Part shown: positions 11,586 to 41,704 of the stretch, one piece after another | Layout of the letters: every line of letters begins with the position of its first letter | Position numbering within the stretch: position 1 is the stretch's first letter | From: Atractiella rhizophila | Taxonomy: Eukaryota | Reading direction: 5' to 3' | NCBI GenBank assembly: GCA_021432655.1 | Contig: MU271544.1 | Span: forward strand, 1 to 46,803 | DNA: 46,803 nt | Program-made: the position numbers and the translations under genes | The notes under the pieces: generated by a model | What the model was told of the DNA's origin: nothing | Databases searched by the model: none | Seen by the model: the letters and a program-made list of their open reading frames with translations, nothing else

Positions 11586-12274
11586 TGTTCGTTATCGTAC
11601 CCTTCCGTGTTTTAATGATGATGGAATGGATTAACATATGCCTTGAACCCCTCCCCTTTGGGACTTTTCGCCTTTTCGGGCGTGACGTGGAGCTGCCACA
11701 GTAATCTGTTAGATGATAGCTTGCCTTCTGGAATGTTGCATCGTTAATGTTTGATTGACATCGATACTTCCAGCTTCCATCATCATGATGGAGTGGCTGC
11801 ATTATTCCTGAGACCATTGAGTTACGTTAAGCGCAAAAGCTGAAATCAGGAAGTTTACTTCCTCTCCGAAATGTGAGAGTAGCGATAGGGGGCCAGGAGA
11901 ACATCTGAGTACGCTGGCATATTAGCCTACTTCTTCTTTCCTAAGTCAACATCCGTATAGTTACCACATCTCGTTCAAACCAGGCAATGACTCGCCGAGG
12001 GACGTCCAAATTGTACATTATAAAAAGTCCAGCACGGTCCAAGCCTGATTTCGCTTTTATTTGTGAACATCACTCTACTTGTACTCCTATCGTGAGCAAT
12101 GATTTTCAGCCTCCAAAGTCATGGTAAATCTACTCTGGAGCGCGGACACCGTGATGGCGCTCCAAAACGAGCTAGTCTGGCCAATGTGATGTGTGAGCCC
12201 TCGTTTCTCGTGCTAATAATCCAGATCAAGACTGACAAGTAGCCCCAGCTCTCAGGAAACGGAAAACTCAGGCT

Positions 12275-13495: not shown

Positions 13496-14242
13496 ATGAC
13501 TTTCATCAATGAGGTGCGTTGGGTACTCGCACAGCGATCAATGTACTTCTAGACTAACTTGTGACAACACGAGGAAGAGGGTCAAGTAGTTTGTTGCTGA
13601 TTTGTGATTTGTAACGATGTAATTTTAGTAGTGCGTCCTACTCACCTTTCCACCTTTATTCATCCTGATTTGTCAGTGAGCACTTGTCTTGATGAATGTT
13701 GGTATCTGCGCTATACAAAGACATTGTGGGGGAGACAACCCAAGTCACAGTATTATCTAGTTGAACGCAAATGCAACCAGTCCCATCAATACTGATGGAG
13801 AAACTTCAAGACCTGCAGGCAATCAACTGAGTACGAAGGCTTACTCAGTGAAAAATTTGTGAAGCGAATCGTCTGGGTCAGCGGAGTAAACTAGGTGTGG
13901 GTACCAGTGCCCGCATAATTAATCACCTGCACAAAGTCACTTAGTACGCATCTACGAGCCACTGGTGACTCGACAAGGGACTTGCTTGGTTAAATAGTAC
14001 CACTCGATCGTTATACTCTTCACTTAGAAGTCCACGTCGATGTATTGGCATTGAGCAATGTCAACTTTGTTTCAATACCGCAGATCTACTTTCCGGCCTC
14101 AGAACGGTGACAGTGCTCCTAAGCAAGCGAGTCTGGGCAAGTTTATTTGTGAGGCGTCATTCTTATGCCCTACTTCTTCTATCCAGAGCGAGACTGACGA
14201 CAGACCCCAGCTCTGAGGAAGAGGAAACCAGGAGTCAACAAC

Positions 14243-15451
14243 TTGGAAAAGCCGTCGCTCCCATCCGATTTGATCCACATCATTCTCAAGGGTATCTGGC
14301 TCGACGCGGTAGCACGCACAAGGGGAGACGCTGTTCACGAATTTTGGCAGTTAAGGACGATTTCTCGTGCGTTTAGAGAAGAGGTTGTCCGACTAAGGTG
14401 CCGCGAAATCACGGTGGGATCTTACGAACAACTCGAAAAGCTGATGTGTACTCAGCATGCTCATCTCCATCCTTTCATTTACAGTGTCAAATTTCAAATC
14501 GATCACAACGGTAGCATTTCGCCGCCACGCTACATGCCCATCTTGACCTTCCAATTTGCCTTTAGAGAACGATCGGACATGATATGGCAATGGATATCTT
14601 CCCTGTCAAATCTGGAAGAATTGGAGTTTCATGGCGACTTGCTCGAACTCGTGGTTCCACCCATTAACCATCTTCGCCGTCTGGTTCTATGCCGTAAGAA
14701 GGGTCTAGTTCCTCGGATAGCTATCCACAACATTGTCCCAAAGCTGGCTGATTTCTCTTCCCTGCAATGCCTAGAGGTCGATGGATCGATTGATTGTGCT
14801 GATGATGCTTCAGTAACTCTCCAAGTGCCTCCTTCCGTGAAGACGTTATCAATAGGACGGCGTGTCGTTCTGCCAGCATTGAAATCCGACATCATGATGA
14901 AGACAGTCCCTATTTTCTGTTTTTCACCACACATCACCTCGTTTTCGACCCACGAAACTGTTTGGCTTGTCGTGGCAGAACTTGAACGAGTACTTGAGGT
15001 GCTACAATCGTCTTTGACGGACCTTTCAGTCCTCGCCTTACATCGTCTCGTACTTCCCGCGCTCCCTGCGCTTCGATCCCTCACTTTGGAGGGGAAATAT
15101 TACACGACTGCCGAATTTTCAACCCTTGCACCCCGCTCAGATTGTTGGCGTTCCCTCTCAGTTCTTAATCTCACTCGCATTTGTATCAAACTGCCTTGTA
15201 GAGCACGGGAATCTGGCGGTCCTATTTTTATTACAAATTCCCTCACGCTCCGATGGTGTGCGATAAAGGTTCACCTGGCTATTGCTTTACTAGAAGTGGA
15301 GCAAACGAAGTACTGTTTCGCAGCTTTCAACGCGTATTCCTCTCCCCCGTACGAAGGATGTAGCGACCTCAAAGTCGCCCTATGGGACAAGATTCGAAGA
15401 CAAGATGCAGAGTGGGTGGAACAAAAGAAAACGCTGTTGTCAAGGGATTGA
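14243..15451 (+). CDS. Hypothetical F-box-like/LRR-like protein, tandem paralog 2
   Basis: 402-aa ORF aligning end to end with paralog 1 (PSLPSDLIH.ILKGIWLDA, FREEVVRLRCR, LEELEFHG.LLELVVPPI, LLEVEQTK). Confidence 0.7.
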   Translation: MEKPSLPSDLIHIILKGIWLDAVARTRGDAVHEFWQLRTISRAFREEVVRLRCREITVGSYEQLEKLMCTQHAHLHPFIYSVKFQIDHNGSISPPRYMPILTFQFAFRERSDMIWQWISSLSNLEELEFHGDLLELVVPPINHLRRLVLCRKKGLVPRIAIHNIVPKLADFSSLQCLEVDGSIDCADDASVTLQVPPSVKTLSIGRRVVLPALKSDIMMKTVPIFCFSPHITSFSTHETVWLVVAELERVLEVLQSSLTDLSVLALHRLVLPALPALRSLTLEGKYYTTAEFSTLAPRSDCWRSLSVLNLTRICIKLPCRARESGGPIFITNSLTLRWCAIKVHLAIALLEVEQTKYCFAAFNAYSSPPYEGCSDLKVALWDKIRRQDAEWVEQKKTLLSRD

Positions 15452-16222
15452 CTTTCCAAGTACATACTTCTTTTGGTGCTTCCATTATTTATCTGCCTTG
15501 ATGGGATCAAAGAGGTCGTGACAAAGTTTGGGTGGAAGCTGTTGGATTTCAGGTTTTGATGTCCTGCTCAGCTGGTGGTTGTTGGTGCTGTTCACGTTAT
15601 TCTAGTCTGGTCTCACGTCCTTTTCTCGACCAATGTCATTCTGCTCACATATAAAGTGCTCGTGGTCTCTCCAACATTGACCCAGTCATCACCATCGCCA
15701 TCACCACCGACGCCACAGCGAAACTCGAAAATCGTCGCAGACGCGCGCCGTCGATCGCTCCGTCTCTCCCACTCCCGCTCACTCCCACCATCGGACTCTC
15801 CCATCCGCTCTCTCGCTCGGTCACATCCATGTCGCTCCCACCTTCATTCCCTCCTTCAGCCGCCCACCTCACCTTCCTTCATCCACCAACAGATGCAAAG
15901 AAAGAGCAGGGCAGATGATATTAATCACCATGACAAAAGAAAAGAGGAAGAGAACATAACCCTCCATCCTCAGGTGACGCTCGAAATTGATTGTCGACGA
16001 TCTTGTAAACGAGATACGATTCAAACGTAGGATTTGCTTTGAGTACGACACAAAAAGGACCTGCACTGTTCAAATATATGCATGCCACTCCAATAACCCT
16101 TGCCACAACTTTGCATGACACCAATGTCCCAAGAAAACTAAACTGTTCAGTCATACCACCCGACTGGAGGAACGAGATCAGGTAGCCTGTGCTTAATGCC
16201 CTCCTATGTACAGCCAGGTCAG

Positions 16223-19200
16223 TCATTGGCTACGTGATATCAGTGAAGGCAAAAAACACACATCAGGGTCCCACTCTGGATCATCCGGGTTCACACCCTT
16301 GCTCTTCACCTCGTTCTGGAACTTCTCCACGATCTTGATCACCTCGAAGACGACAGCTTCATCCACAGGTACGTCTTTCGAGTTAGCCAATGCCTGCGCA
16401 GTTTGGAGGCAACGCTTGATGAGTCGACCGTTTAGATTGTGCTTCGCGAATTTCTCGAGGGATGCACCTGGGGTGAAACTTGGTGCTGGTGAGAGTAGCG
16501 CCGCGAATTTGGTCCATATCGAGAGGCGTTGCTCATAGCCCAAGTTGGGATACTTTAGGGCGATGGAGAAACGAGAAAAGAAGGCGGGGTCGAGGGAGGA
16601 AATACGATTCGTGGTCATGAACTGCAAAAGTCTCATTGTAAAGAGCTAGGTGAAGATGGGAGGTGGGGTACGAACCATGATGCCATCTTGATACTCTATC
16701 ATTCGCAGGAAAGTGGAGACTAGGCCATTCCTCGTAATGTTGTGCTTCGACCTTCTCTCGAGGAACACATCCGCTTCATCGAGTAAAACAATCTAGCAAT
16801 AACAGCCTTCAAATTCACTGGTCGGAAAGAGAGTAAAAAAAAGTTACAGCATTCCAGTCCTTGGCGACATCGAAGATATTCCTGAGGGCAGTCTCACAGC
16901 TCATCGAGTCCCAGCCCATCTCTCCGCTTCCCACGCAATACAGAGGGCGATGCAGAAGTTCTATGCCCCACGCAATCAGCTGAGTTCACCATTTATCTGG
17001 GGAAGCCTAACCGGAGCAGGCTTCGCAAGTCAGAGTCTTTCCCGTCCCCGGAGACCCTTCAAGGAGGATGACCACGCCTCCACTCTTCCCTTGTATCACG
17101 TCCGTTAGTACAAGAGAAGACTTGGCGGACTTGGGCGAGGTGATGAGCGCCTTAATGAGGTTCTTATATGTATCATCCAACACCCTATCCTTCAGATCAG
17201 TACCTCTACCATCCACACCGCAGTCAAAGGGACTACTAACAAATGATCGAAAGCCGCCTCCTCCCACTTAACAGGCCTAAAGCCCTCGATATCCATCTCC
17301 CCCCACTCCTTATACTTCAAACTAAAGCCATAAACGACTGGCGGGAGCAGATGGAATTCCTCCTCCTTCGGCGCCTTCACTTCCTCCTTCTTATCCGGAG
17401 TCCCACCAGCCCTTTGTTGAACTCCAAAAGGCAAGTTCCTAACAGCCATTTGTCGACGGGCCATACGCTGTTGTCGAGCGTGAGAGATAAAATTTGGCCT
17501 GGAGCCGTACGGATCGAACGGGTCGTCTTGGACGTAATTGTTATTCTGTATACCACTCGTCAGCGTGAGCGCCGCGCAGAGGGAGAGAAGGGAGCGTCGC
17601 ACCTCGAGGTTTACCCACCGATCGTAGTTGGGATTCATCTTCCTCCAACTCCTTACATCTATCATCGCCCTCCCATCCGCTCGCAGCTTGATCTTGACCG
17701 CTGGATTGTTGGGTGAGTGCTTTGCGATCGTTCCTGAATATTCAAGGTGATGAACGCCGGCGTAGGACACGTACTATACAAGGGAATCAGATCCTTAAAG
17801 AAGAAAGCAAGGAGGGAGATGGGGACATACCTTCCGCCCTCTTTCGGTGAGCGTCTTCCTCATGTCTTCGTTTAGGAGTATGACGGGCAGCGTCGAGATA
17901 TCTTTCAAGCCCTATCGACGCTCTGTCAGCATGTGACAAGAGACGAAAGCAGACAAGCACCTTATAATCCCTCACTGCCGACTGCAGCGGGATCCTACAG
18001 AACTCCTTCCCTGTGAACTCGAGATACTCGCCGTCAATCAAGAATTGCCTGTTCCCATTCCGATGTCAGGAATCATCATTTAGGCTTAATAAATGGAAGG
18101 CAGGAAGAGAGGAAGACGTACATTCCCTGTTGTGTGTTCTTATAATCCACCTCCAAGATTTCGAAAGCCATCTGTATTGCAACCTATCAGTCCTACAACC
18201 ACGCAACAATCCTCCAACCTTGGAGTACTACAAAGACATAGACAACAAAGGGAAATGGAGCTTACAGGATTCCCGAACTGAGGATCGAGGGTGACAACCT
18301 CCTTCCCAGGGGTAAACAACGTCCAAAGGAGCTTGAACGAGATCTGGCCCTTGGGCAACGAATCCAACTTCAACCTCGTAGTCACGAACGCCTCCTCTAT
18401 GATGAAATTGAGGAGCGTCTTCAGATGGGACAACTGCTGTTTCAACTTCTCAGGGTCCAACTGTCCCTCGGTCACTGTTCCCAGTTCACCCTTAATCATC
18501 TTTCACCAAGATGATTGAAATATAGATGAAAGGTGGACGAACTCAGTTCCGCCCATTCTTCCTTTAACGCGGTGAGCGTTGAATCCTCCTTCTTCTCATC
18601 TTCGTCTTCCTCCTCCTCGTCCTCCTCATCCTCATCCAGCTCCTGCGATCCCTCCCGTTCCTCCTCTGCATCGACATCGAAAGGCGGTTCCACCTTCTCT
18701 CCTTTCTCCAGCTTCTTCACGTCCTCCTCCTTCGAGGTGACGACGTCGGAGAGGGAGGAGTGAGCGAGGAAGAGCGTTTTGCCATCTACTGTCGGTGGGG
18801 TGTCGTAGAGCTCCTCAGTACGAGGGAGGTGCACACTTTCCATCACTTTCGTGAGTTCATGCGGAGGAGGAAATTGAGGATGGACTCACCGTAGACATTT
18901 AAGGAGCAGCGGAGACTTGATGTCGAATTCGAACATGCCCTCCTTGTCTGTTCCATCGTCAGTCAAATTAGTTTAGTTAGCACAGGAGAGGGGAACAGAG
19001 GAGAAGGAAGAGACTGACCATTCCGATCGCCCATCCTGTGTTTGGCGACGAATACGAGACCCTCCCTGTCAGCATAACCTTCGGAGAACATCATTCCCCT
19101 CTCTCCTAGGCACCCAGGTCCTCGCGCTCTGAGACCTGCAACCCATCATCAGCACATCCTCCTGTTCGCAAACAGAGGAAGACGAGAAAGGGAAGAAGGA

Positions 19201-19714
19201 AAACCGACCAAATCTGATTAACCCTCAAAAAAGCGCTATCCCCATCCCCCTTCCTCTCCTCGACTCCATCGTCCCTCTCCTTCCCACCCTTCCCATCCTT
19301 CTTCCCATCTTTCCCTCCGAATCCAGGGTACGCCCCATAAGCAGGGTCAAACGGGTTGCCACCCATTCCCATTCCCATTCCCATCCCCATCCCCATCCCC
19401 ATATACCCATTCCAATTCGATGGGACAAACTCGTTCCCCAGCCCAGCAGCGGCGGGGTACTGGTATCCGAGGAGGACGAGGAAGAAGACGCTTCCTTCGC
19501 ACCGGACGAACTGCTGTTTGGTGGTGGTGGCGCTGGTGGAGGCGGAGGTGAGGGCTTGGAGTTGGGAGAGGAGAGAGGGCGGGAGGGAGGACGAGTGTTT
19601 GAGGAGCAGGGTGAGGGCGTCGTTGAACTCTTCGTTTCCGTTTCCATTCCCTTCGTCCGTGCTCGTGGTTGCTGAGGTGGACTTGGTGGGTTGCGTGGGG
19701 ACTGGGTCGGCCAT
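16223..19714 (-). CDS. Fungal AAA+ ATPase, multi-exon
   Basis: GKSGGVVILLEGSPGTGKTLTCEA (Walker A), RPLYCVGSGEMG, LLDEADVFLERRS (Walker B), FLRMIEYQDG, TTNRI..DPAFFSRFSIALKY, LNGRLIK; N-terminal GM dipeptide run and acidic tract. Confidence 0.88.
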
Positions 19715-20868
19715 GTCGGTCGGTGTTGACGCTTCGACGTGGAATTAGACCAAGTTCAGACGTGCGAACTATGAAACTGAGAGTGGTTGGTGAGCGAGAT
19801 GAGGGTGGATTTATAGATGATGGAGCAGAGGATGACTTGCCACAGGATTCGGGAGTCCTAAATCGCAAGGGAAGACGCGACGCGCGAGTGAGGAGGCAAG
19901 TCAGAGACAATCTGAAATGACAAGTGACAAGTGCAAGTCAGGAGTTGTGACTGGTTTGGTTGGGATTAGCAGATGAATTGATTTGGGCAACGACGCACGC
20001 GAATTGGCAATAAGTGAGGCACTTCTTCGACTGAGTGAGAGGAGAATGGCACCTTGGGTTGGGACGAGCAAGAGTCGATAACTGAAACGCTAAGGCAGGG
20101 AATTCTGGAGGATGTGAAGGCTGTGGAACTTGAGGACGCGCAGCGACGCGACATACCTTGCAGACGCGTTTGTGAGTCATTCTTCCGTTCTCAGGAAGAG
20201 AAAGCTCAGAGGGAGTATGTTAGTGAAAGGGAACATATACTACTAGTAGCAGCGCGTTTAACACAGATGCAGTGAACGGCGGTGAGATTGAGGTGCGCCT
20301 CCACCTTGTTATTGGGTCTCCATTGCGATGAGAGTATGGATCCGCACGTTCAATATTCGTACAGGGACGTTGAAGAGAGACGAGGGGAAGGAGCCCTCTC
20401 GTTGTTTTGTTTTCACGCTCATATGAGCTTTCCAAAGCGGTAGTGATAGATGTGAACCATTATATTTCCTTTAGAGACTCCATACCATACTTAGGAAAGA
20501 GCCGATTTATTGTTGAAGGAGAAGATTAACAATCGAGTCTTTTTGTTTTCAAACGGATTCAAACAAAGATTTGGTCCCATTGCAACTGAGAGAAAGATCT
20601 ACCTGGCCCCTTCCCCTATGCTTCAGTAGGTGCCCGTCCATCAACAGGAGGTTCGAAAAGCATACTACATATGTGAGCAAGGACCGCAGCAAAGACAGCA
20701 AACACTATTTCGTTTGGGATGGTGTAGTGTACCTCGATGATGTAGCCATGTTCAGTCGTATCCTATCCCGTTGAACTTGGACGACGGAATGCGGCAGCAA
20801 CCAGACTTACTACGAATCTCGTTAACCTCCATTGGGGGGCGTCGGTAGATGCTTCCATGTCTGGTGCG
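19674..20868 (+). repeat. ~1.2-kb segment (AAA ATPase promoter + first codons), copy 1
   Basis: Matches the reversed reading of 29738->28592 over its whole length, with scattered substitutions and indels. Confidence 0.85.
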
Positions 20869-20940
20869 GGGGGTAGAAATCAGCAGTTGGGAGATGTTAG
20901 AACTTGCACGTCCGTCATCCTCCTTACCCTTTTATATCCT

Positions 20941-20990
20941 CTCTGTCGCGCGAAACTCTGTCGCGCGAAACTCTGTCACGCGAAACTCTG
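20941..20990 (+). repeat. 3 x 15-bp tandem repeat CTCTGTC(G/A)CGCGAAA
   Basis: Direct reading. Confidence 0.85.
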
Positions 20991-21156
20991 TTCTCTCGGG
21001 CGAAAGAAATCATATCACCCTTCTTTCGCCCGACAGACACACTGGACAGCTTCTTACGAAAGCAATGACAAAGTCTCGTATGGGACCGCGAATGATCAGT
21101 TGAGGTGGACCTTCTTCTAGTTCAAGTCTACTTTCAAACGGACATTCTTGAGTAGG

Positions 21157-21256
21157 ACGGGTACACCCGTGAGCGGCATTAGGGTCATCTGCTATTAGCA
21201 CGGGTTCACCCGTGAGCAGAATCAGTTTCATCTGTGAGCAGCACGGGTCCACCCGC
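21157..21256. repeat. Three spaced hairpin motifs ACGGGTNCACCCG(T/C)G
   Basis: Copies at ~21157, ~21200 and ~21243. Confidence 0.75.
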
Positions 21257-21984
21257 GATTGGTAGGGGCCGCAAACCTCTGGGTTGAAGTCCCAAGGCTA
21301 GAAGTTTGGTGCCCAGGCATGCTTTGTGCCTCCCAACAATTCGCCAAGCCTTTAACAGTGTCTTCTTCCATCTTCATGGCACCTATCTTAAGAATGACAT
21401 GAGCGAATGCTTAGAAACTCGGCAAAATGTTGAAAAGCAAACGTGAGGAAAGCAGCTCTGAGCTGATGTGGTCCTTGAGTTCCACAGGAACTTGCACCCT
21501 TTCACCCGTCAATACGGGTGCTTCAATTTGTCATTCACTAGAAGGAGAGATGGTTCTGAGGGAAGGGAGATTGCAGAAATTTAATGAACTTTGGACCTGA
21601 TGGAGGATGCATATTGTCTTTGAAATGCTGCACGATACGATGTTCGGATGCTCGGTAGCTTGTAGATATGGAAGAATTATGTGGTTCTCCTGTATCCGCT
21701 AGTTCCATCGCAAAACAGCGCATCTTACCATGTCCTTTAGCGTCTATTATCAAAAATCTAAATTGAAAGAGCGTGAGAGCCCGGATGCAGCACAGACTAC
21801 CAACTCCATTTCTTCAAGGACAGCCTCACGTTTCCCATATGGAGTAGTCAAGTTCAAGGTCGTCCTATGGGACTTTGAGAGCTTCGTGACGTTTCATACC
21901 CTTTTATAAAGCGGTAGATTTTCACCATTTTATTTCCTTCACAGACTGACATGAGATGGTCTATTGCATTAAGAAAGAAAGAGA

Positions 21985-22884
21985 TCAATAATAGGGTTTG
22001 AAGGCGATTTTCAATGGACAAAGATGGTGCTCCATTTCAATTGAGGCAAGGCCGTAAGTGCGCCGTATCGTATCCTTCAGTTTCCGCTGAGCATACGAGC
22101 AAGCAATCCAGCGAGGATCTGATTGAGGTGAGGGGTTCGACTGTAAGAGCACCTTCCAATTTAGGTGACCGGGTCTTGTGGCCACTTTCTCCTGTCGAGC
22201 TTCAACTAAGTCGAAGGTGCCACATCTGTGATAAAAATCTTTGGCACTTCTCGGCTGCACTTCAGCATTATTTGGAGGAAGTCTCTCTGATACCTCTGAT
22301 ATGTCCTACTCATCCCTGATTGTGAATCATCCGTTAAATATCAGCCGGAAGCATGACGGGGTCGAAAGCTGCATCAATGTCGGGGCCGTAAAACCGACAA
22401 GTCCATTGCTCCCACATTCTATCAGCGACATCGTTGGATCGAGAAACCTGGACATGTTTCGGCTTGTCCGTCACCACAGGGAACAGGCGGCTGCCGAGAT
22501 CTCCCCATTGTTTCGATGGGGAGATGAGGTGCAGGAGTTCCAAGGACTCTAGACCCGATGTGGGGAGGGAAATTGTCGTTAAAATATTGCACAACTCGAC
22601 AATGAGCAGTCGGAGATGAGGCAGCTGTAGATGCGAGAGAAAAGTGTATGCTTCTCCCTTTATTGCGCCACGAATGCATAGGAGCGACAGGGATTGACAC
22701 TGATTGATGAGTTTGGACAAGGAGAGAGGAGTCTGATCACCGTAGAATTTGCGCTGCCAATCGTAGAAGCGAAGATTTAGAGAGGTAAGGTTACCGTGTA
22801 ACAAGATAGACAGGAATTCTGAGGAACTTGGGGGGTCGATGATGGTGTTGTCGGCTTGTGAATAAGAAATGGCTTGGAAGCTTA
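21985..22884 (-). pseudogene. Fragmented LRR/F-box-like hypothetical gene
   Basis: ORF 22334-22804 (LTSLNL, LQLPHLRLLIV, LESLELLHL) plus the downstream piece 21985-22260; a paralogous fragment lies at 31345-31590. Confidence 0.45.
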
Positions 22885-23970
22885 AAGCGAAACGAGCAGA
22901 ATAATGTTCTTCCGTAAGAAGTGCTTTAAACGTTTATGTATTGGTGTTTTGGTTTCAGATGCTATCTTCTAGAGTACGAGCAGCACACGGTAACGAAACC
23001 AGCACAGCTCAAAGCTTTTTTAAGAGGGATGGAGTACGTTCTCTCCTAGTTCTTATGTAGCAGACAGCATCATGAGGGAAGGGACGGTGTTTTTCCGTCA
23101 GTTACAGAATTTTGTAGTGTTACGAGAATAGCAGCTGTAAAAGTTCCCAATGCGTTAGTGGACACGTAGGATACGGTAAAGACAACCACAGATTGACTGG
23201 CGGACCACATCTAAGCGTTGTCGTGCGTCTTAGGGAAGGTCGACTTTGGACGGAAGGAGAGTCAGCTAACAGAAAGGGTTGCCTGTGTGGGCTAACAAGA
23301 GGGAAGTAGTTAGTTTACTTCTTGTCTAGATATGGAGAGGCGTGAGCTAGGCAAAAACGACCAGTTAGTCCCGTGTGGCTGCTGAAGGTGTTGCGGTGAT
23401 AGTTCCTCAACCATCTTTCACAAGCGCTTCCCCAAGTGGACTTGTTCGTACGGCAAGGTTGGAAACTGTACAAGTGCCGGTTTCTGCTTCTGTAACGTAA
23501 CTTACGAATGCGTAAGCTAAAGAAATTCACTCAAGGAGGAAGACGGAGATGAGGTTCCTGATTGGTATGTAAGACTTTACTTTCTGTACCAAGCCATGGG
23601 CTAAATAACTTTCCCTTGCCCTATTTCTCCCCTTTACAAACCATAGAGGAAGTTTTTGGACAGCGAAACGTAAGCGTTGACGGTTCCTCCGTTAGACCTT
23701 ACACGAGCACCTCCGTCGTTTCTTCGCACCACATCGTCTACTTTCGCTACTCCCGCAGTACCTCGAGGTCTTGCTCGACCTCCGTCTCCCTCTTCGCTTT
23801 CTCCTATAGTACCTCTCTGGTCGTAGGCAGTTTCACACGGTAAGGGAGAATGCAGGACTACTCGTTAGGCGACTTACCTAGCACTCGTCGTTCCACTAAC
23901 CTTATATATGCACCGTTAGAGGAATGAATTCGTTCTCAAGCTGCTCTTCAAAGCGTTTTAAACCCGTATT
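22885..23970. CDS. 3' part of a DDX60-like DEAD/DEAH-box helicase (readable as the plain complement, left to right)
   Basis: FALLVLLQEGILHEICK...LMLVVCHCFGR...SVVVLPSLP...RSVFAGQSGHTDDF...LNAYAFDFFKHG...NGIKRGNVWYLLQ...EFDEKFRKIWA*; three GT-AG introns. Confidence 0.8.
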
Positions 23971-24306
23971 TCATCGTTTTGCCCGACGTTCAAGGGTTGT
24001 TCATCCGTTAGTCTTTTAAGATCCAACAGGAGGAAAAGGAGGGTCAGTCGATCCGCAATAGCACGGTAAGTAAAACAACAAGGTCCGTTCAACTATAAGT
24101 ACAGTAAGAGTTTTGCTCCTACAAGTCCAATAAGTGTCGTGTGCTCTCACTCCTCTCTCAATATTCTAGACCAAAGTGTAGTAAACAAAGAAGTATATTT
24201 ACTGTTACCGTTCAATCATTCACAAAACTGTAGGAAAAGGGGTTGTGTGGGAGGTAAGCTAGCTCGTTCAATGTAAGCAGCGCGTAGCAGTACTGCATCT
24301 AGGAGA

Positions 24307-27168
24307 AATAAGTAAGGGGACGCTTTGGACTCATGCTCCGGTCAACATCGGTGACAGTTGTGTTCGTCTGCTGTAGTCATAGGTTAGGATTAGTATTGGA
24401 ACCGAAGACAGGGCCGGATTCCTGGAGAGTCGGTACATATTTGACGGAAATCTCACCACTGAGGAGGAGCGTCCGTCCCTCCTCTTTCTCATTCCTACTA
24501 CGAATGGCCAGCAAGGAGAACATTAGACGCTTAAACACTTATATGAGGCAGTCAAGGAGCCCAGGCGCTGAAGGCATGAATATTCCCTCGCCGAAGCCAA
24601 AGAGAGGAAGCTAGGTCACTTCCTACCCCCACTTCTAGAAGGTCCGCTATAGCTCAAGCAGTAGAGCCTGCTTTAACCTCACCAGCGGGAACTTTGTCAG
24701 CTCCTAGTTTCGAAGCATACGGATGTGTAGCTGTAGGTGTGTAGGAAGTTAGTTTTACCTGCTGGCCTCTGTCTACTTTTCCGACTGGAGCCCCTAGGAC
24801 TCTAGGCTCTTGGAGGAGAATATGCAGTCCAGGTAAAGGCAACCGTGCCACGCGTATACTTCTGGTCCACGAAAGCGCAAGTAGAACTCCATCTGACGGA
24901 GAGGTCCAACCTGAGCCTACTGTTCGAGCAAGGACCGCTACAGGAACTTCTAAGGAACCCAGTGCAGGAACATGACCTAAGCTTAAAGTCAGAAAACAAG
25001 CAAGTTTCGACATCAGGTTCTAGTGTGTAATTGTTCTACATCATTGCTACATATTGCCCTTTCGCATGGGAACGGCCGAAATTCTTACTTGCCTTGGGGG
25101 AGGGTGGCAACCAACAACTACATGTATTGCTATCGTCGCTTTCACCCTGTCTACCTAGGACACTATAGGTGTAACAGTCGATGTGTTGAAAGATTAACCT
25201 GTCCTCGTTTGACTGGAAATCCGTGTCACAGTAGAAGCTCTATAGGTCCGAAGAGGGGTAATGGTTGTATAACAGGTTCCTCCTGAACTAGGAAAGAGTT
25301 GCCGCGCTATATGGAGTTTCGGAAGTGGAAGAGCAGGGACTATAGGAGTCGCCTCTTTCTGTGCCCAGCAAGGTAGCATTCCTACCTTTCCTGAACCTCA
25401 TCTAGACGCGGGCGGCTTCCGTGTAGTCGTTACTTTGAGCTATAAGGTTCCCCCTTTGGTTGCCAAAACGTAGTGCAGAGACTATTAAGGTTTGAGTAGT
25501 TTCATTGGGGGGAAGGGAGTCAAGGCTTACCAAGGAACTTTCACTAAACCTGTAAGCTCTACTCCACGAACAACTTGCTTACCAGGTCTTCCTGCAAAGG
25601 CTTAGACTCTTACTCCTCCAAGAAGTGGTAGAGGAATGGTTCCATTACCAGCTAGGCCATCCAGACAAGTACGGGTGGTAGTGCTAGTTAATGGGGAGAA
25701 TCCATGCGTTTACCACCACCTTTGCTTGGAGCAGGAGCCAGGTCTCGCGAAAGTCGAGTGGGTAGTAGAGGGATGACGAGCGGTCCAGGAAGGGCTTTCC
25801 AAAGAGCTGGTGCTAGGCTAACTAAGGTCGTGATCACACCAATAAGAAGGAGTTAGGAAATCTCTGACCCTACTTCTGTCTCCCTCCCTCCCGGTACATC
25901 TTATATGCGATAAAGGGGTGTCTCACCGGTCCTTAGACTTACTCTGCTTTGCTACCCTTTTCCTACTTTAGTGTATGCAACGCGAGAAACGGGAATATTT
26001 GGCGAGAGCTAGGCGACCTCGAGAAAGAGGTTTAGGACCTTGGGCAGCAGAAATAGCATAACGGGATAACTGGTGTTGCTTCATATCCTAGTCGGCTTTG
26101 AGAACCCAACTTTCTCCCACTGTACGGTCTTTGCATTCATGTTTACCACTCCTTAAGGAAGTCGAAAACGACAACTCGCCCCTACCCCCAGAACTACATA
26201 ACGCACTAAGCGAAATCCATGAGGACAACCGGTCGCGTTCGTTACAGTAGTCATTCACTGTCATTTTCACCGCCAGGTGTAAGGTGGATAGGGAACTTTC
26301 CTGTCCTAGCCTCCCCTCTACCCACCCCACCTACCTACCCATTAGACTCTGAATGTAGCACTAGGTAAAACCAAGAGCGTATAGGATGTTACACATTAGG
26401 GAGCCCCTCCTTAGGTAACTTCATCTCTGGTTTGTCCCCCCCATACAGATAGCGTTTTGTCGTCTTAGTACAATCGTTGCATAGGAAGAAAATAGGCTTT
26501 AATTCTTACATCTGATCATTAACTCAAGCCCTCTAACCAATAGCCTATTACCAACCTATTCACACTCCGCCCCATTCTTGCACTTGTCACTTGTCGTCAG
26601 GTCCACGGTGGCTTTTGGACACGAGATCGACCCCAAAACCCCGAACACCGGCACATCCAACCTCTCCTTTCAACTTCCGGAGCCCCCTCTCAGACTCTTC
26701 CTTCTTTCGTTCACCCTACGGCTATTACAAGTATAGCGTTGCGGTAATACATACGTTGAGAAGTTTTACTCTCCTCGACCAACTACCTACGTGTTCTTTT
26801 CGTTTGTCTGCGTTTCTCCTTATACAACGACTACTGGCTAGTGGTGAGACGGAGTTAGATCGAACAGTCGCGAGATCGCGAACTTGCTATTCGTAGTATA
26901 TGGGACATACATACATTCTTTCATGGCTTTAGCGAATAGCAACGCTCTTTGTACCTTTCTTCGTAAACTACAGTGTGAGAGGTATTAATAGCAGGGTAGT
27001 GGGGTTGAGCGTTTTGTTGTGCTACGACTGTTCTACTGCTATTACGTTACTCTGTTTCCTCTATGCGTGGAAGAAGAATCGGTTTAGCGGGCTCCGAGGT
27101 TCCTGCTGCTACTGGCATAAGACGAACTCGAGAAGGGGTCTATAAAGTCGCGAAAGTTAACGGCGGTA
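24307..27168. CDS. ZWF1: Glucose-6-phosphate 1-dehydrogenase (readable as + strand letters, right to left)
   Basis: MAAIESAEISGEELKQNTVIVVLGASGDLAKKKTYP...GYART...YMALPP...VEKPFGKD...YRIDHYLGKEMVKN...[20 protein letters not shown]...RWEGVPFILKAGK...YGSRGP...YNWP; many GT-AG introns. Confidence 0.95.
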
Positions 27169-27429
27169 AAGCTTGCGAGCAATAACTTTTTCCTTTTCAC
27201 TCTTCACTCTTACTTTTTCACTCCTTACCTACCACCTAGCCACCTCAACAGACTCCCCTTACCCGGAAGCTACTTCCCAAAACTCCCACTGCCTGGCTAT
27301 GCGCTCTCCCTCTACTACTACTAGTTTAGGCGCCTTGTAGTAGTAAGGAGGAAGGCATAGTAGTTGAGAGTAGCTATTATGAACGTGGAAGGAGGAATCG
27401 CAGGTAAAAGTGTCCCTTTCGATCCTTTG

Positions 27430-27831
27430 TACAAACCCAGACACTCAATAAGGGATTCAGATACCGCGTGTGACGAGTACTGTTAAAGTTCAACTAAGTA
27501 ATACGGAAACTGCGGGAGGAGGAAAGACATCGGGAACGTCCGTAGTTCCATAGAGGAAGGTAGGTAGGAGAACGCACCTAGTACAAAAGTATAGCATACA
27601 CATGTGTCTCTAGATGGCCCGAGTGTAATCGGCAGAGAGCCTAGGTCCCTTTCCTATAGTCCGTCGATCACCCGTAGATGGAACTCAATCAGGTGAACAG
27701 GAACAAAGGGGTGTCTCTAGGTTCGCACGATTGTTAGATACACCGCAAACCCATCCTACCCTCTCACCTGCTACCTAAAGTACTAGCATCGTGATCCTTC
27801 CTTGTCCACCAAGCTCTCCTCCTCCCTAACT
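27430..27831. CDS. ATG44: DUF1748 / Atg44 (mitofissin)-like small protein (readable as the plain complement, left to right), 4 exons
   Basis: MFGS/LIHYAFDALLLSVALAGIK/RSTGLTLAVSRIQGKDIRQLVGIYLE/MGEWTMDFMIVALGRNRWFERRRD*; the LAGIKRxTG, YLxxGE and FxR motifs match the family. Confidence 0.8.
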
Positions 27832-28591
27832 AAGCTCAGGGTAGGGTTTCTTCAAACTCCATGACCATGCAGAGAGGTTGTAATGTCTGAGCCTCGTCAA
27901 GAGTACTTTTAAGCTTCGTCCTATGCAGAAAACAAAGCAAACATCAAGATAGCCAAACCATCACGTTCGTAACAAAGGGGAGTGTGGCGAACGCACCCGT
28001 GAGCCGTAGCGGTAGTACCTGTTGCCTACCGCCTGCCTTACGGTACCTCTCGAGTGTCATGTTTGGCGAGAACGGAGTCGGTACAGCAGTTGTACTTATA
28101 TGATAGACCGCACTAAAGTGCTGGACTCCGTGGGGGCGATAATTTGTCAGAGCTGGAAAGAGGGGAAGTACAGGAGGCAGCTATACTTATGCTAGGTCGA
28201 GACGGGAGTTTGCAAATGTAAAGCAAAAGTGCGCGTGAAGGTGCCTATCAGTATATCAGTATGGGGTGTAGTGCAGCTCCGACGGTTTAGGTCTTGGACA
28301 CTGTAAGGAGGCTGTCTTGCAGTTAGTCGAATGCATGCTCATTTATGACATAGCACGGCTATGCTAGACTTTAACGACTATGCCTTCCGTCAAGCTTTGG
28401 GAACATCACCAAATATTGCTCTCTACAACACAACGAAACACGTTCTAATAAAAGTTTAAGCATGCTGTCACATATAGCGAAAGCATGTTCTGACGAAACG
28501 ATATCGAGACTGACTGCAACCGGCGTTGTATATTTTCATTACTGTTGCTTTCTGAGGAGTCGCGGATTCTAGAGGGTCGTGCAGATAGCTA

Positions 28592-29738
28592 GCGTGTTCT
28601 GTACCTTCGTAGGTGGCTGGGGTTACCTCCAATTGCTCTAAGCATCATTCAGACCACGACGCGTAAGGCAGCAGGTTCAGTTGCCCTATCCTATGCTGAC
28701 TTGTACCGATGTAGTAGCTCCATGTGATGTGGTAGGGTTTGGCTTTATCACAAACGACAAAAAACGACGCCAGGAACGAGTGTATACATCATGCGAAAAG
28801 CTTGAAAGAAAGCCTACCGTCCATGACTTCGTATCCCGTTCCCCGGTCCATCTAGAAAGAGAGTCAACGTTACCTGGTTGAGAAACAACTTAGGCAAACT
28901 TTTGTTTTTCTGAGCTAACAAGGAGAAGAGGGAAGTTGTTATTTAGCGAAGAAAGGATTCATACCGTACCTCAGAGATTCCTTATATTACCAAGTGTAGA
29001 TAGTGATAGCCGAATCTTTTCGAGTATACTCGCACTTTTGTTTTGCTTGCTGCTCTCCCGAGGAAGGGGAGAAGAGAAGCAGGGAAACGTGGTTGTAAAG
29101 TAACGTTACCTTTGGGTTATTAGCTCCTGCTCTGCGTGGAGTTGAGTCAAGTGACGTAGACACAATGTGCACGACCGATGATCATAATATACAAGGAAAT
29201 AAGAAAGACTCGTAAAGACGACATGTAGACTCTTGCCTTCTTACTGGAGTGTTGCGCAGACGTTCCATACAGCGCAGCGACGCGCAGGAGTTCAAGGTGT
29301 CGGAAGTGTAAGGAGGTCTTAAGGTGGACGGAAATCGCAAAGTCAATAGCTGAGAACGAGCAGAGTTCGTTCCACGGTAAGGAGGAGAGTGAGTCAGCTT
29401 CTTCACGGAGTGAATAACGGTTAAGCGCACGCAGCAACGGGTTTAGTTAAGTAGAACGATAGGTAGGGTTGGTTTGGTTCAGTGTTGACAGTGAACAGTA
29501 GAGTCTAACAGAGACTGAACGGAGGAGTGAGCGCGCAAGCGCAGAAGGGAACGCTAAATCCTGAGGGCTTAGGACACCGTTCAGTAGGACGAGGTAGTAG
29601 ATATTTAGTGAGAGTAGAGCGAGTGGCTGGTGAGAGTCAAAGTATTAAGCGTGCAGACGTGAACCAGATTAAGGCAGCTTCGCAGTTGTTGCTGGCTGTA
29701 CCGGCTGGGTCAGGGGTGGTTGGGTGGTTCAGGTGGAG
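28592..29738. repeat. Mirrored second copy of 19674-20868
   Basis: Reverse reading gaggtggacttggtgggt...cttgccacaggattcgggagtcctaaatcgcaaggg...atgcttccatgtc. Confidence 0.85.
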
Positions 29739-29785
29739 AGCGCTAACAAGGTACCAGAGCGTCTATGCCAAGCCTCCAACCTAGG

Positions 29786-29810
29786 NNNNNNNNNNNNNNN
29801 NNNNNNNNNN
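29786..29810. other. Assembly gap (25 N)
   Basis: Run of exactly 25 N. Confidence 1.
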
Positions 29811-30470
29811 TAAGCTCTCGTACGAAAGTCTAAGCTCTCATACGAAAGCAAAGAGAAAATCTCTCGTACGAAAGCATAAGCCCTCGTACGAAAGTCTAAG
29901 CTCTCGTACGAAAGTCTAAGCACTCGTACGAAAGTCTAAGCACTCGTACGAAAGCATAAGACCTCGTACGAAAGTCTAAGCTCTCGTACGAAAGTATAAG
30001 CCCTCGTACGAAAGTCTCAGCTCTCGTACGAAAGTCTAAGCTCTCGTACGAAAGTCTAAGCACTCGTACGAAAGCATAAGACGTCGTACGAAAGTCTAAG
30101 CTCTCGTACGAAAGTATACAAGCTCTCGTACGAAGCATTATAAAGTCTCGTACGAAAGCAGACGAATCTCCTACGAAACCATATAACTCTCGTACGAAAG
30201 CTGTCGTACGAAACTATAAGCCCTCCCTTGTACGAAAGCAGGATAAAGTCTCGTACGAAAGCATACGAAATCTCGTACGAAAGTGTAGAAAATCTCTCGT
30301 ACGAAACCATATGACATCTCGTCCAAAGCAGTACGAACTCTCTCATACGCAACTGCAGGAAATCTCACACGAAAGCAGTACAACATCTCTCATACGAAGC
30401 GAATACAAAGTTTCTCGTATGAAAACTTTGCAAAGTCTCGCACAAAACCAATCTGAAGTCTTGTACGAGT
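29811..30470 (+). repeat. Tandem array of ~18-20-bp units AAGCTCTCGTACGAAAGTCT, decaying rightwards
   Basis: More than 25 copies of (C)TCGTACGAAAG; homogeneous near the gap, degenerate after ~30150. Confidence 0.95.
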
Positions 30471-31344
30471 TTTAACAAAATTATCACGAGAAAGAATGAC
30501 AGGTTGGCTCAAGGGGACATTATGTACTTCAAGTTCGCTTCGGCTCAATTCTTGTAGTTCAATGATCGTCCGAATCGCAGAGCAGCCTAGCCTGAGAAGA
30601 GCTGAGAATGCTGCAAGCGGCGTTGTTGTGTACATCGACTTTCGCTTTGGCACATTATGGTGCATCATACAAACTTTGAAGCCGACAAATGCGAACCCGG
30701 TTATTTGTGTTACAGACTTGCAGACACACAGGAAAGCAGGTCGTTTATTGGACAAAAGTATTAAACAAGCAAATCCTTCATGTGAGATGTGATTTAGAAG
30801 GAATTTATTCCATGAGGAAAACAGCGAAGTCGCGCCTTATTGTATCCTTAACATCTATTTTCCAGAGTATCATTTGGAGAGAGCACACGAGCGAGGAACG
30901 CCGCCAGTACCATTTCTTCAGGAACATTGTAGTGTTCCCCGCTACCTCAATGGTGTAACCATACTCGGTCGTGTCTACGAAACTTGAGAGGTGAACAACG
31001 GAATGAAAGACCTAGAGGCTTACAACGAATCTCCCATCAGGAGGGTGGCAGTGGTGTTGATCTGTGGTGCTAATTCTTGTGGTGGCAGGAGATATCAGAT
31101 TTACGAGTTGCCATCCTCCTAACTTTTATTTGCTTGCGTACGTAGGGAGAAAAGGTTGACCTTTCCTCATATTCATGCCAACTCACTCCTCAATTCATCT
31201 TTTACGAAGGGTGGAGGCATCGCCAACCATGGTCAGCTTGTAGAATTGGAGGACGTGGATTTAGGCATGGGAGTCAGGAAGTGCAGCCATGGCATGACAA
31301 ATGGGTGAGGTCGGGATGTTTTTCGACTCAGTCTTTGGAGAGGG

Positions 31345-32268: not shown

Positions 32269-32921
32269 TGAAGTCGCTTATCCCGGACTAGAGGGAGAGT
32301 TCGAAGTGGGAATAAACGTTTGGTGGGCAAACACCGAAGCGGCTTAGTGAAAAGGAACTAGGGCAGCAGACTAGTGGTTTTGCAATGAAAAAAATGCGCT
32401 TTCAACACTATAATTGACCCAAAGTACACTAAGCAAGCACCTGAGGATGAGAGAAATAAGTAAGAAGTCAAATGAAAGTGTAGGATGCTCACAGCACGAG
32501 TGAGGAATGATATTTTCATCTAAAACTTCCCCTTTTATAGCTTTTCTCCTCTCCAGCGCTCCACCTGGCTCCACCCCCTTTTCCTCCTCAACCTCTGATC
32601 TCCTACATCCTTCCCCTAAGTCCTACGTTGCCCTATTTCCTTTTATCTTGCCCAGATTTTCTATCTTGTTCAATCGCCATTGTCTTCTCATTTAAGGTTA
32701 AGATGGAGTTTTCTATTTGTCCTTGTTCTATCTTGAATTGGCCTTTGTCTGCTTTTCCTTGTTCCGATTGAATTAACAACATGGTTGCGGAGTTATGCGT
32801 TGCAGTGAAGTACGTAATTTGGTCGGCGTTTGTAGTGAATTAGGCTGTTTGTCTCGCACGTGTCCGTCCTTGACGTACAGTTGTCACGTGATAGTATGTA
32901 CGGACGGGACGGGGTACGTCA
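32269..32921 (-). repeat. 3' LTR
   Basis: TGAAGTCG...TACGTCA; six substitutions versus 41705-42357. Confidence 0.95.
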
Positions 32922-32936
32922 TGTCCCTCCTGTTTG
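32922..32936 (-). promoter_or_regulatory. Polypurine tract
   Basis: Minus strand CAAACAGGAGGGACA abutting the 3' LTR. Confidence 0.7.
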
Positions 32937-33021
32937 CCGAGTCGCCCCCGACGAGTTCAAACTTTAATAGGACCCTAACCCTACGTTGGCCACGTCGTTC
33001 ACCTTCCTGCCCTAAAGTCAA

Positions 33022-33029
33022 TATATAAA
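33022..33029 (+). promoter_or_regulatory. Candidate TATA box for the antisense gene
   Basis: TATATAAA followed by a C/T-rich tract, ~190 bp upstream of ATG 33217. Confidence 0.5.
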
Positions 33030-33216
33030 CCACCATCCCTTCGTCAACCTCCCCCAACTTCAACCACCACCTTCCTCAACCTTCCCCCTTGTTCGTTTGC
33101 AAGCTGTCGGGTCTTAAGGAGCGACTAGCGAGCTACGATTTAGGCGGCGAATTTTTAATTTTTGAGTGAAATTTGCACGGGGTTTCAGTACCCTGTCGTT
33201 TTTCGCTTGCGCTCTA

Positions 33217-35045
33217 ATGGACTTCTCGCTTTCTCCCTCACGTGTGGAGGACCGAAGACTCTTTCTTTTCGACGTCGAAGGCGCTTCCAGGATAGAACTT
33301 GAAAAGAAGGCTGAAGATATTTTGCGTAGGACTCGTTTGCAGACTGGTGAACGTTTGATACAGTTTCCTCGTACGTCCTTCCTTCTGAGTAGTGGCTGGG
33401 TTGGTGTTCATTTTTCCTGTTGGTCCAGCGAATTGGAGTGTTCTTCGTGATTTGCGAAACTTCGATTTTAAATATGGGCATCTGCCTGCCTCATCCGCTT
33501 TTTGGGACTCTCCTCGCCTTGTTGTAGGCTCCCTTGACTTCTCTTCGCTTCCCCAGTTCTTCCTACGTGCGGTTGAAGGTTTCCTCTCCGTCTGGTTAAC
33601 TGTGGAGAAGGCCCAGGAGCTCGCCCGCCTTGTAAACTCGATTTTTCCTCCAAGCTCGACTGATCTTCCTTTGCCCACCCATCGCTACTTCCTTTCTGTG
33701 GTTTATATTTCTGCCTCTTGGTCTGCTGGGCCTGCTATTTGTCTCCTTCGAGTTCGAGACAATTCATGGGAGCCCAAGCAATTTCTGTTCGAAGAGCGTA
33801 AATGGATTGAGCGACAACTCCGCCGGTTGCAACGTATTTTCTTCGAGGACTTCTGTTTTTTCTGGACTCATCGCGCCATTGGCGAAGTCAAGTATGGTTC
33901 CTCCGTCCTTTCTGCGTGGCATGGATGGCAAGAGAGTGGTGCTCGCCCTGAAATGTTGGAGCCTTCCGCAATTATCGCGGCTGTATCATCATCTCGTGTT
34001 TGGGTTCGATTCTCAGCGTAAGCATCCCATCCTTGATCTATGCCCCCCCTTCTTGTGCTGACATGCTATTACTAGGTGGCGCCCTCTATTATCTTCGTCG
34101 TGCTCTCTATACGTTCCTGTGCCTGGCCAAGTCTTCCCTGTTCCTCCTCCTCGCCTTATCCGCCGTGAATATCCCCTATCTTCCGATTTTTCCTTCCCTC
34201 GCATTACCTTCGCCTCTCCGGCTCCTCCAATCCCGTCATCTCCTCCTTATGTTTTCTGTCCTCCCGATCCTTATCCAATTTATGGTCAATCGAACTTCCT
34301 CCCTGCGGTCCTTGGTATTTCCTGGCTGGATGTTTTCGAAATGTTTGAGTCTCAAATGGATGTTGAATATCCGGTCGCGCTCATCACTGATTATAATTTC
34401 TCCTGGGAACTTGAGCTTCGTGAAGACCCTTCAATCGATCGTCGCCTTCGCTATGTTTGCGTCGCCTTTGTCCACGATTCACCTGCTTCCACGTCTCGCG
34501 CCCGCCGCCTCGTTTCCTCCACTGGGTCTTCAGCTTTTCGAGCTCGATTCGGTGCTTTCGTTGGGATTCTCTCATCTGTTATGTACGGTTTCGACGTCTT
34601 TTATTTGAAGCATTGGTTACGCGCGGGCGATTTCTTTGAGTTTGGTCTCGACTCGGAATTTCCATCCTATAAAGAAGCTTGCGATATTCAGACCCAGGTC
34701 CTTCAGACTCCTTTCGACCCAGATCGCTGTCTTTCTTCCGTCGAAGACCTCAAGTCTTCCCATCGTCCTCCTCTTCGAATTTTTGTTACCCAAACATCGT
34801 CCAGTCCAGCGGTTTTTCGTTTTACATTTCGAGGTTCAGAGCATCAAAGGCCTTCAGGCATTCGTTCTGAAGAAGAGCAAATTGAAAGACGAAATAAACG
34901 GAAGACCAATGAGTTGAATAGAGCATTGAAAGGGGATTTGAAAAAGTAAGTCATCTATGTCTATTGGAATGCAGTGATTCTGAGAATTTCAAAATTTTCT
35001 AGTAAACGTCGAAGAGAAAAGGCTAAGCAAAAGCGGAATGTTTAG
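33217..35045 (+). CDS. Spliced antisense gene of unknown function inside the Ty3 element (~551 aa; exons 33217-33370, 33429-34017, 34076-34945, 35003-35045)
   Basis: Three 57-58-nt introns (GTACGT..CAG, GTAAGC..GCTGAC..TAG, GTAAGT..TAG) join ORFs 33166, 33392 and 34119 in frame; basic C-terminus RRNKRK...KNKRRREKAKQKRNV. Confidence 0.82.
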
Positions 35046-35192
35046 CTTTGAAAAAGAAACCAATATCTCCTCCCTCCTGTTTGAATTCTTTGCCTGTATT
35101 TATACCGTTTTCGTATTTCTAGTCTATATTTCCCTCGTTTTTATATTGTGTTATTATTTTTTTATTTTTGTATTTTTTTCCATGTCCTCCAT

Positions 35193-38100
35193 TTATCCCC
35201 AAACATAGTCTTCATCCAGCTGTTTCTTCTTTGGATTTCGCCGCAATGCATACGTCCTCCCTCCTGTTTTCACGACTGGCCCCCCAGTCTGAGCCTCCTG
35301 TCCCTGTACTTGTTGTGTAGCTTTCCTTTGTCCCGGATCGTCTTCGTTTCGTGAGATTAAGTCTTCCTCATCCGTCTCCTCCTCTTTTTCCCTCTCACGT
35401 TCCTCCTCAATCCTCCGTTTCCCCCAAGACGTTAGAGTCTCTTCGATCAGATCACCCTCTCCATCATCCACCACCGCTGTTGTTACACCGTCGTCCACCA
35501 ATTGTTTCCTCAAGTAGTACCGTCTAAGTCGTTTTGCTGCTACTAATCCATCGATTGCTGTCCCATCCAACTCCTCCAACAAATAAGATCCCCTGTCCTT
35601 TCGTTCCTTGATTTTGTAGGGCCCAAACCATCTTGTACGTAGCTTCTTACTATGAGCCATTTCTAGCCTTGCATTCTGCTTTAAAACTAACATTCCCGGC
35701 TCCAGAGGGTCTCGAATTTTATGTGCGTTTCGTCGATCAAGGTATGTCATCCCTTCCTCCCTGGCTTTTCTTAATTTCCTGATCACCCTTTCTAGATCTT
35801 CATCTCGTGCCTCGATTTGCCTCATCCTTGCCGCAATTAAATCCTTCCTCGACATAGTCTCCTCGAATTTAGGTATATAGAATGTCAAAAGTTCGAAGTC
35901 GACAGGTAATAGTGGGTCACAACCCAAAAGTAGTTGAAATGGTGATAGGTTTGTGGTCCTTTGTGTTGACACTCGTTCCGCGAATAATGCCCTGTTGAGG
36001 TGTAGGTGCCATTCCCATGGTCTGTCGCTACTGGCTTTCTCAATTGCCTTTACGATCTCCTGATGCCCTCTTTCGACTCGTCCATTTGCTTCTGAGTGGT
36101 AAGGTGTTGGATTGATGTACTTGCTCCCGCTCATTAAAATTGCAGCCTTCGCCTCTCCCCGAAATTCAGGTCCTCCATCCACAACATAGCATCCAAACGG
36201 TCCCCATCGCCATTTCACTTCCTCCACAAATCTCGCAATATCCTTTGCTCGAATCCTTTTCAACGCTTTCCCTTCTGGCCAACCCGTCAAATCATCCTTT
36301 AATAACAATAAGTAGGGGTATAGTCCCACTCCCATATGCACAACGTCCATTCCAACCTTTGAAAAGATGCCCGTGGGTACAGTTGCTCGGTGCGTTTCTT
36401 CCTCAGTCGTTCTTGCATTTTTCTGACATGCATCACAGCTACGAACATATTTCCCAACCCATCTCTTCATGCCAGGCCACCATCCTCTTGATTTCAGCCT
36501 TCTGTAAGTCTCTTGTTGTCCTCGATGGCCTAAGTCTTCATGTACTGATTTTGCAAATGCTCTACGTTCTTCTTCCCTATCGACTACCCTAACATGAATC
36601 CCATCTTCCTTCCTTCGCCACAGTTCTCCCTCCTGTAAAAAGAAATCCCCAGCTCTCCGTTTAACCCTTTCGAACGCTTTGTCAGAAATACCGTCCATTC
36701 GCTGAAGTGTCTGCAGAAATCGTCCTAACGCTGCGAATTGTGGATCTGGATAGTTATGTGAGTTGAAATTGACCCCCTGCCGCTCCAGTTGGTTGACATT
36801 AAGTTGCAGATTCCCAATCACTTTCTTTTCCTCTTCCTCCACCATATCTTCTGCACTCCTTGCTGGTTCGTCGTGTTCTGTTCTTGCTACTCGAGATAAG
36901 GCGTCTGGTAAAAGGAATTGTGCCCCCGGATGATGTCTAATATCGAATGTAAATAGATGAATAAAGGCATTCCATCGTGCCATTGGTGCATTTGGAAGGT
37001 TGGGTGAGTTTATCATCTGCACTAGAGATATAGCGTCGATGACAAGGGTGAAGTGGGTTCCCCAGAGATCATGTCGCAATTTCGCAAATATCTTCGCCAC
37101 CCCAGCCAGTTCCAGTTTCGATTGTGAGTACCTCTTCTCGACTTCCGTGAAACTTATTGACTCATATTTGACCGGTTGCGGTTTTCCACGTTCATCCTCC
37201 TGTGCCAAAACTCCTCCTGCTGCGACTTGACTTGAATCTACCATTAAGATAATTTTTCCTGCTCCTGGACCTCGATTTAGTGCTTTCAGAAGGATGTCTG
37301 CTCCAACTATCAGTTTCAGCCTTTCGAATGCCTCTTGTTGTTTCTTCCCCCAAAACCATTCTTGTTTATTCTTCAATAATATCCTCAAAGGCGCCGTTTC
37401 GTCTGAGAATTTGGGAATGAAAACTCGAACAAAGGTCACCGCTCCGTTAAAGGTACGCAATTCGTGAACATCTGTTGGTTGGGGCCAATCTAAAATTTTG
37501 TTCCGCTTCCTTGTGGTTATCCTCTTCCCTTCATATCCGCAATCCATTCCTACTATCTCGACAGATGGGCAGCAAATTGCCAGTTTTTCTCCAGATACCG
37601 TAAGTCCCGCTTCTTCTAATCGAAAAAGTATTCGCTCTAATGTAACCGCATATTCCCAGATAAATCGTCGAATCCCAGGATTGTCAGGCAATGCCTCGTT
37701 ATTGTAACGACTTTTAGGACCTTTGACCGTGATATCGTCAATAAAGATAACAGTAAAAGTTGGTATTTCGTCCTTCATGATGAAAACTGTGCAACGCTGA
37801 TATTCTGCCACGGAATTGGTAGCTCCCACCGGTAATCGTCGAAGTCGAAACTGTCCCAAGGGTGTTTGAAAAGCCGTCATGTCCCTCGTCATTTCATCGA
37901 GCTCCCGCTGGTCATATCCTCCCAAAATATCCAAAGCTCCAATACACGCATATCCCACACAATCGTCTGTATGTTCTGCAATGTTAGGAGGCAGCCCACC
38001 ATCTTTAATCGTCACCCCATTGAGTTTTTGTAGATTATGCACTATTCGGATCTTCCCATTCTTCTTCTCGACCGCGAACCAGGATGACAAATAAGGTGAT

Positions 38101-41278: not shown

Positions 41279-41684
41279 GATCCTGGTTGATGGCGTGGTA
41301 GTGGTTTTACGAGGGGCACTAGGTACTTCTCGAGGGGTGGATTGTGGCGTCTGTTTCGAAAATTTGCTGCTAAAGAGGGCAAGAGATGAGGGAAGCTCCT
41401 TAAGAGGATATTGGGTTGGTGTCTTCTTCCTTAAGGGATCCAGTTCGTTGATAATCTTGAGGGGAAAGGGGTATGCTGACGAGGTCGAATTAGGAAATGG
41501 TTTGCTGACGAGTTGTCCACATGTGCTCGAAGGCCTTCAATCGCAATCGTGAGTCGTCTACCGTCCTTGTTCTTCTTGAGCTTCAACTGACCAGGCGAAC
41601 CCAGTGCGGTCAAATCTCTCGTTCCCGTCAAAGTTGAATGATCAAACAAATGATAGTCAAAGATAAAAAAATAAAGTGACAAAT

Positions 41685-41702: not shown

Positions 41703-41704
41703 AA

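Follow-up and report, generated by a model that had tools for sequence, protein, structure and literature searches.

As far as the available parts of the published accounts go, the closest described tool to the one implicated below is the gap filler PBJelly. In this program gaps are defined from 25 N, extension from one side of a gap shrinks it, and a gap is called 'overfilled' when the extensions exceed its predicted size (English et al., 2012, PMC3504050). The accessible portion of a benchmark on simulated reads gives PBJelly fills a mean identity of 88.6-95.2% (PMC8848313). The stretch of Atractiella rhizophila DNA analysed here, referred to as the window, comprises 46,803 nucleotides (assembly GCA_021432655.1, contig MU271544.1, positions 1 to 46,803 of the forward strand) and contains a mirror block of 6929 bases (22857-29785), in which the true continuation of the left flank is written reversed in place and uncomplemented, followed by a residual gap of 25 N (29786-29810) that closes the fill. 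No strand is assigned to the block, the gap or the mirrored features described below. Like flank extension by PBJelly, as set out in the available text, the block continues a contig end inside a scaffold gap, with a reduced gap left behind it; unlike it, the output is reversed and uncomplemented, which neither PMC3504050 nor PMC8848313 mentions in the parts accessible. No description of reversed, uncomplemented assembly blocks was found in the literature searched, which did not extend to subscription journals and software trackers, where they may be known. The block is almost certainly a software error in the assembly record and not the organism's DNA.

The position of the block follows from comparison with contig C113 (C-numbers denote contigs of the same assembly as the window, G000). 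The normal left flank (20676-22856, + strand) is collinear with C113:96685-98813. Window position 22856 corresponds to C113:98813, and the sequence from C113:98814 onward matches the block read from 29785 downward. Over the first 38 bases past the flank, reversal in place accounts for 37, complementing in place for 9, the deposited form for 6 and a true inversion for none; the reverse-in-place match thus defines the block as 22857-29785. The fill begins exactly at the contig end (22856/22857) and stops at the 25 N (29785/N25), the only other N run in the window being the 812 N at 1201-2012. A preliminary description of this DNA, made from the sequence alone, had recognized the mirror block and set it at 22885-29810; the block itself exists, with a start placed 28 bases too far to the right and an end that takes in the 25 N. 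As deposited, it matches nothing in G000, in either orientation of the strands, apart from itself. Once reversed, window 22937-28391 aligns with C113:105608-100159 at 98.4% identity over 5474 columns (E = 0). Over these approximately 5.45 kilobases (kb) the two differ by 29 indel events, of which 21 are single-base, and by 41 substitutions, and an allelic share may be included in these counts.

Composition and frame structure were also compared along the window. The ratio of TpA to ApT, together with other mirror-sensitive dinucleotide ratios, switches sign over approximately 23.0-29.8 kb. A Markov score for mirrored versus normal sequence, trained on window 6-22 kb, assigns 297 bits to the block, against 7 bits for the best segment within 4-22 kb and 10 bits for the best within 31-42 kb; minor peaks of 31 and 27 bits lie at approximately 2.0-2.6 kb and 43.4-44.3 kb, respectively. 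The longest stop-free frame in the block is 121 amino acids as deposited, which bears out the earlier remark that the block looks gene-free in six frames, and 149-180 amino acids once reversed or complemented; translated in these forms, the block yields G6PD-like and further coding stretches.

Judged by sequence, the window duplicates C113:69590-98813 or represents its second haplotype, because it is collinear with that region (87-99% by segment). Within the block, window 28392-29737 differs from the C113 sequence at the corresponding place (C113:98864-100158) and is probably another allele. Most of this part is related, in mirrored form, to window 19674-20868 (87%) and to C113:90702-92139 (89%); as a control inside the window, 28592-29738 in plain complement aligns with window 20868-19674 at 87%. 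The right part of the window maps to C113:92147-93014, upstream of the point at which the left flank ends, so that scaffold order disagrees with that of C113, as would be expected of a mis-join or a rearranged haplotype.

Four public sequencing runs (X1-X4) were compared over 15000-29785, all in the form of contigs, from which presence can be read but not absence; X1 and X2 represent one sample, not two, and X3 another. Contigs of both X1 and X2 fit the window up to 22856 and then carry a 39-base loose end, of which the 30 letters shown equal C113:98814 onward and hence the far end of the block read backwards. A loose end in X3, before 19674, corresponds to the allele that the block itself has, in forward orientation, and is one base off C113; none of the fetched loci contains its 30-mer. 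The organism's DNA therefore runs on forward where the record turns backwards. Depth was 0 in all 14 block bins in each of the four runs, with flank bins covered in 16 of 16 cases for X1-X3 and 11 for X4, and a query half in the flank and half in the block recovered at most 0.35 of its words in any listed run; neither result is counted as evidence. Within window 19096-21897 there are several one- to three-base indels relative to the X1 and X2 contigs, and this stretch of normal flank may be an earlier, correctly oriented fill of low accuracy.

The preliminary description had read three conserved genes out of the block, and all three are recovered. Glucose-6-phosphate dehydrogenase (G6PD, ZWF1) occupies 24503-27168 in 10 exons, read from 27168 downward without complementing, and the earlier mention of proper introns holds for this gene, in which all nine introns have canonical ends (8 GT-AG and 1 GC-AG). 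An intact G6PD gene lies in normal orientation at C113:101377-104046, where a hand-built model of 10 exons encodes 491 amino acids with no internal stop. Its single spliced frame contains both G6PD_N (PF00479) and G6PD_C (PF02781) above cut-off, and each domain has one site in G000, both being those on C113 in normal sense. Relative to this gene the reversed G6PD carries three single-base exon indels, at approximately 26438, 26000 and 25508, each a frameshift; occasional single-base indels had been noticed before, and these three lend support to an artefact. The expectation that annotation would falsely score ZWF1 as absent is refuted: G6PD is not lost, because the intact 491-residue gene stands on C113. 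The second gene, Mitofissin/Atg44 (PF08520, DUF1748), is readable in the plain complement at 27462-27831, approximate limits projected from the C113 copy, which scores 45.3 bits for PF08520 against a cut-off of 27 (E = 7.6e-12). Besides this C113 locus, G000 has a further paralogue on C90 and C1056.

The third gene, the C-terminal part of a DDX60-like DEAD/DEAH helicase, is readable in the plain complement at 22857-23970, of which 22857-22936 reaches 80 coding bases past the end of C113. Its C113 product is present in the protein collection (P0001) and matches the C-terminus of 22 longer homologues, mostly fungal DEAD/DEAH helicases, nearly all with PF00270, PF00271 or PF26076; mammalian DDX60 is among them (E = 3.1e-6). 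PF26076 and PF23002 are taken here to be DDX60 domains. Nothing usable for the identity of the helicase came from Pfam (single exons and P0001), a PDB sequence search or Atlas searches. P0001 aligns with residues 1483-1774 of the protein P0004, and the helicase core and N-terminal part, up to residue 1414 of P0004, run off the start of C46. This arrangement suggests a single DDX60-like helicase gene split over the end of C113 and the start of C46, which would make the two contigs neighbours. The tail of the block has no sequence overlap with C46:1-600 and stops short of C46. By tblastn, three of four proteins match the window in complement-only form and none the deposited form, mammalian DDX60 matching neither. 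Neither of two chance open reading frames (ORFs) of the deposited block occurs in the protein collection by exact match, a comparison that spliced junk models would escape. Compared with fungal G6PD (Zwf1), Mitofissin/Atg44 and DDX60-like genes, the hidden copies are ordinary, with 98% DNA identity to C113, and differ from their counterparts only in written direction and small indels.

Mirrored sequence recurs at other gaps, the first example being in the window itself. A second block (2013-2664, between N812/2013 and 2664/2665), to the right of the 812-N gap and likewise reversed in place, matches a paralogue on C538 at 99.1% and C113:70911-71560 at 92.8% once reversed, and closes at the start of the right flank. 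Among 71 matches to window 1-9000 only the self-match covers it. This block lies within a multi-copy gene, presumably of the patatin/NB-ARC/TPR kind, that shows tandem repeats and a P-loop-like motif in its 3' part. Approximately 0.9 megabases of the assembly were read overall, and a sample of 53 contig stretches, 44 of them small contigs, with a total of 689,916 non-N bases and 25 gaps of at least 10 N, was scanned for gap-adjacent mirror blocks, a check that the preliminary description had named. Eight segments were called, and three of them, on C1000, C1005 and C955, adjoin gaps, giving 3 of 25 sampled gaps; where a gap was exactly 25 N, two of three had an adjacent mirror block. Gap-adjacent mirror sequence amounts to approximately 5.5 kb of 690 kb (0.8%) in this sample, which consists mostly of small contigs and is not a genome-wide estimate.

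Homology and junction both verify the block at C1000:743-3541, which is bounded by 742/743 and 3541/N25: once reversed, it starts as the exact continuation of C158, with 1074 bases at 99.2%. In addition, the C1000 fill and its own right flank overlap over 2 kb (88.8%), which may be likened to 'overfilled' gaps as the accessible text on PBJelly describes them (PMC3504050). The blocks on C1005 (approximately 4342-6324) and C955 (approximately 2758-3524) were recognized from composition and frame length. Two more, found by following a shared mirrored repeat and standing outside the 53-stretch count, are identified mainly by composition: one on C288 starts at a 25-N gap and extends from 49880 (242 bits), and one on C121 (approximately 37489-42807, 182 bits) stops, as called, 330 bases before a 25-N gap. 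Every homology-verified block adjoins an N gap, and blocks lie on either side of gaps.

A gap-filling step would account for this pattern. In the proposed sequence of events, such a step would have extended the contig end at 22856 into the scaffold gap with a consensus of 6.9 kb that was written backwards; either a consensus from the opposite strand would have been complemented and left unreversed, or a forward consensus would have been reversed while the complement step failed, and the data fit both. The remainder of 25 N would have been left after the fill. We take it that PBJelly writes exactly 25 N at overfilled gaps, and its use in the present assembly is likewise presumed. The earlier proposal of a long-read gap-filling error stands insofar as the exact junction, the forward-running contigs of the public runs, the recurrence at N gaps and the indels all indicate an artefact of the gap-filling kind; its long-read origin, like the one-sided extension route and a PBJelly-like program, we infer. 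Several points weigh against a gap-filling error. The tool and the faulty step are themselves identified by inference, part of the indels relative to C113 may be allelic, and X1 and X2 may derive from the source sample of the assembly. Among the sampled gaps, no mirror block was called at 22 of 25, so that the error is confined to some of the fills, and five of the eight called segments lie away from gaps; four of these are natural repeats, and C370:20905-21299 is unexplained. For the blocks on C1005 and C955 the evidence is limited to composition and frame length.

The alternative that survives best, though very unlikely, is that the mirroring arose in file handling after assembly (submission, masking or data-set preparation), for example through a reverse-complement routine that skips lower-case letters. 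Gap fills are often in lower case, and a fault of this kind would likewise hit only some segments. A letter-skipping reverse complement of a whole scaffold, however, predicts complementing in place, which accounts for only 9 of the 38 junction bases against 37 for reversal in place. The blocks moreover have a contig end as one boundary and an N gap as the other, on either side of the gap, and this implicates the step at which fills are inserted; since they are reversed in place between these bounds, both an inversion and a letter-skipping reverse complement of the whole scaffold are excluded. It is far less probable still that the mirrored DNA is real and was produced by some process copying a template in parallel sense, so that 3'-to-5' order is written 5'-to-3'. 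In its favour is only that the record shows such sequence, several times. The real-DNA reading is largely refuted by the loose ends of the run contigs, which depart from the record exactly at 22856 and go on forward; all homology-verified blocks adjoin an N gap, blocks show 98-99% identity to normal copies, and to our knowledge no polymerase or recombinase yields reversed, uncomplemented DNA. Least credible of all, with no support found, is an ordinary inversion or a reading obtained by chance from non-coding DNA, given 0 of 38 bases at the junction, a deposited block unmatched on either strand in G000 save by itself, and a mirror match to C113 with E = 0.

No biology follows from a software error in the record, and the finding is of low, technical interest, its relevance being to data quality; the interest would be greater if the fault were general to a common tool. 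Mirrored fills go undetected in any ordinary search, read-based polishing cannot correct them, and they are able to hide genes. In the present case nothing important is lost, because normal copies exist on C113; the sequence seen in the block alone consists of the 80 helicase-coding bases and the 1.3-kb allele. That a general and unreported fault exists in a widely used long-read gap filler is suggested here tentatively, as a possibility somewhat less likely than not. If it did exist, many public hybrid assemblies would contain kilobase-sized backwards blocks next to gaps, which BLAST, read mapping and annotation would all miss, and in some of these assemblies a gene would have its sole copy hidden in such a block. 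The blocks would then be detectable by a simple dinucleotide test and reversal would recover the genes, making a cheap screen of other assemblies worthwhile.

Composition-only screens are subject to false positives from a dispersed repeat at window 43330-43750, whose composition imitates mirrored DNA. The candidate at 43376-44333 (27 bits) was rejected, as 43330-43750 is a normal repeat with more than 30 copies in the deposited sense. The non-gap segments called on C996 and C366 are this same repeat, the one on C920 has inverted ends, and that on C360 is a tandem repeat. The segment at C370:20905-21299 is weakly mirror-like (20.5 bits), has no gap beside it and is unmatched among the fetched loci.

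Several further features of the window lie outside the mirrored fills. Directly after the 25 N, window 29811-30500 is a degenerate tandem repeat of approximately 20 bases with relatives on C113, C81, C103 and C262. A mirrored origin for this repeat was considered and rejected, its core occurring 12 times forward on C113 and in none of the remaining three readings. Window 12236-13495 and 14198-15451 are two tandem paralogous ORFs of approximately 418 amino acids, 68% alike in DNA. Window 32269-42357 resembles a long terminal repeat retrotransposon, with 653-base direct repeats at 99.1% that enclose long minus-strand ORFs of 903 and 1219 amino acids, presumably gag/pol. This element lies within a 16-kb stretch that is missing from C113 at the corresponding site.

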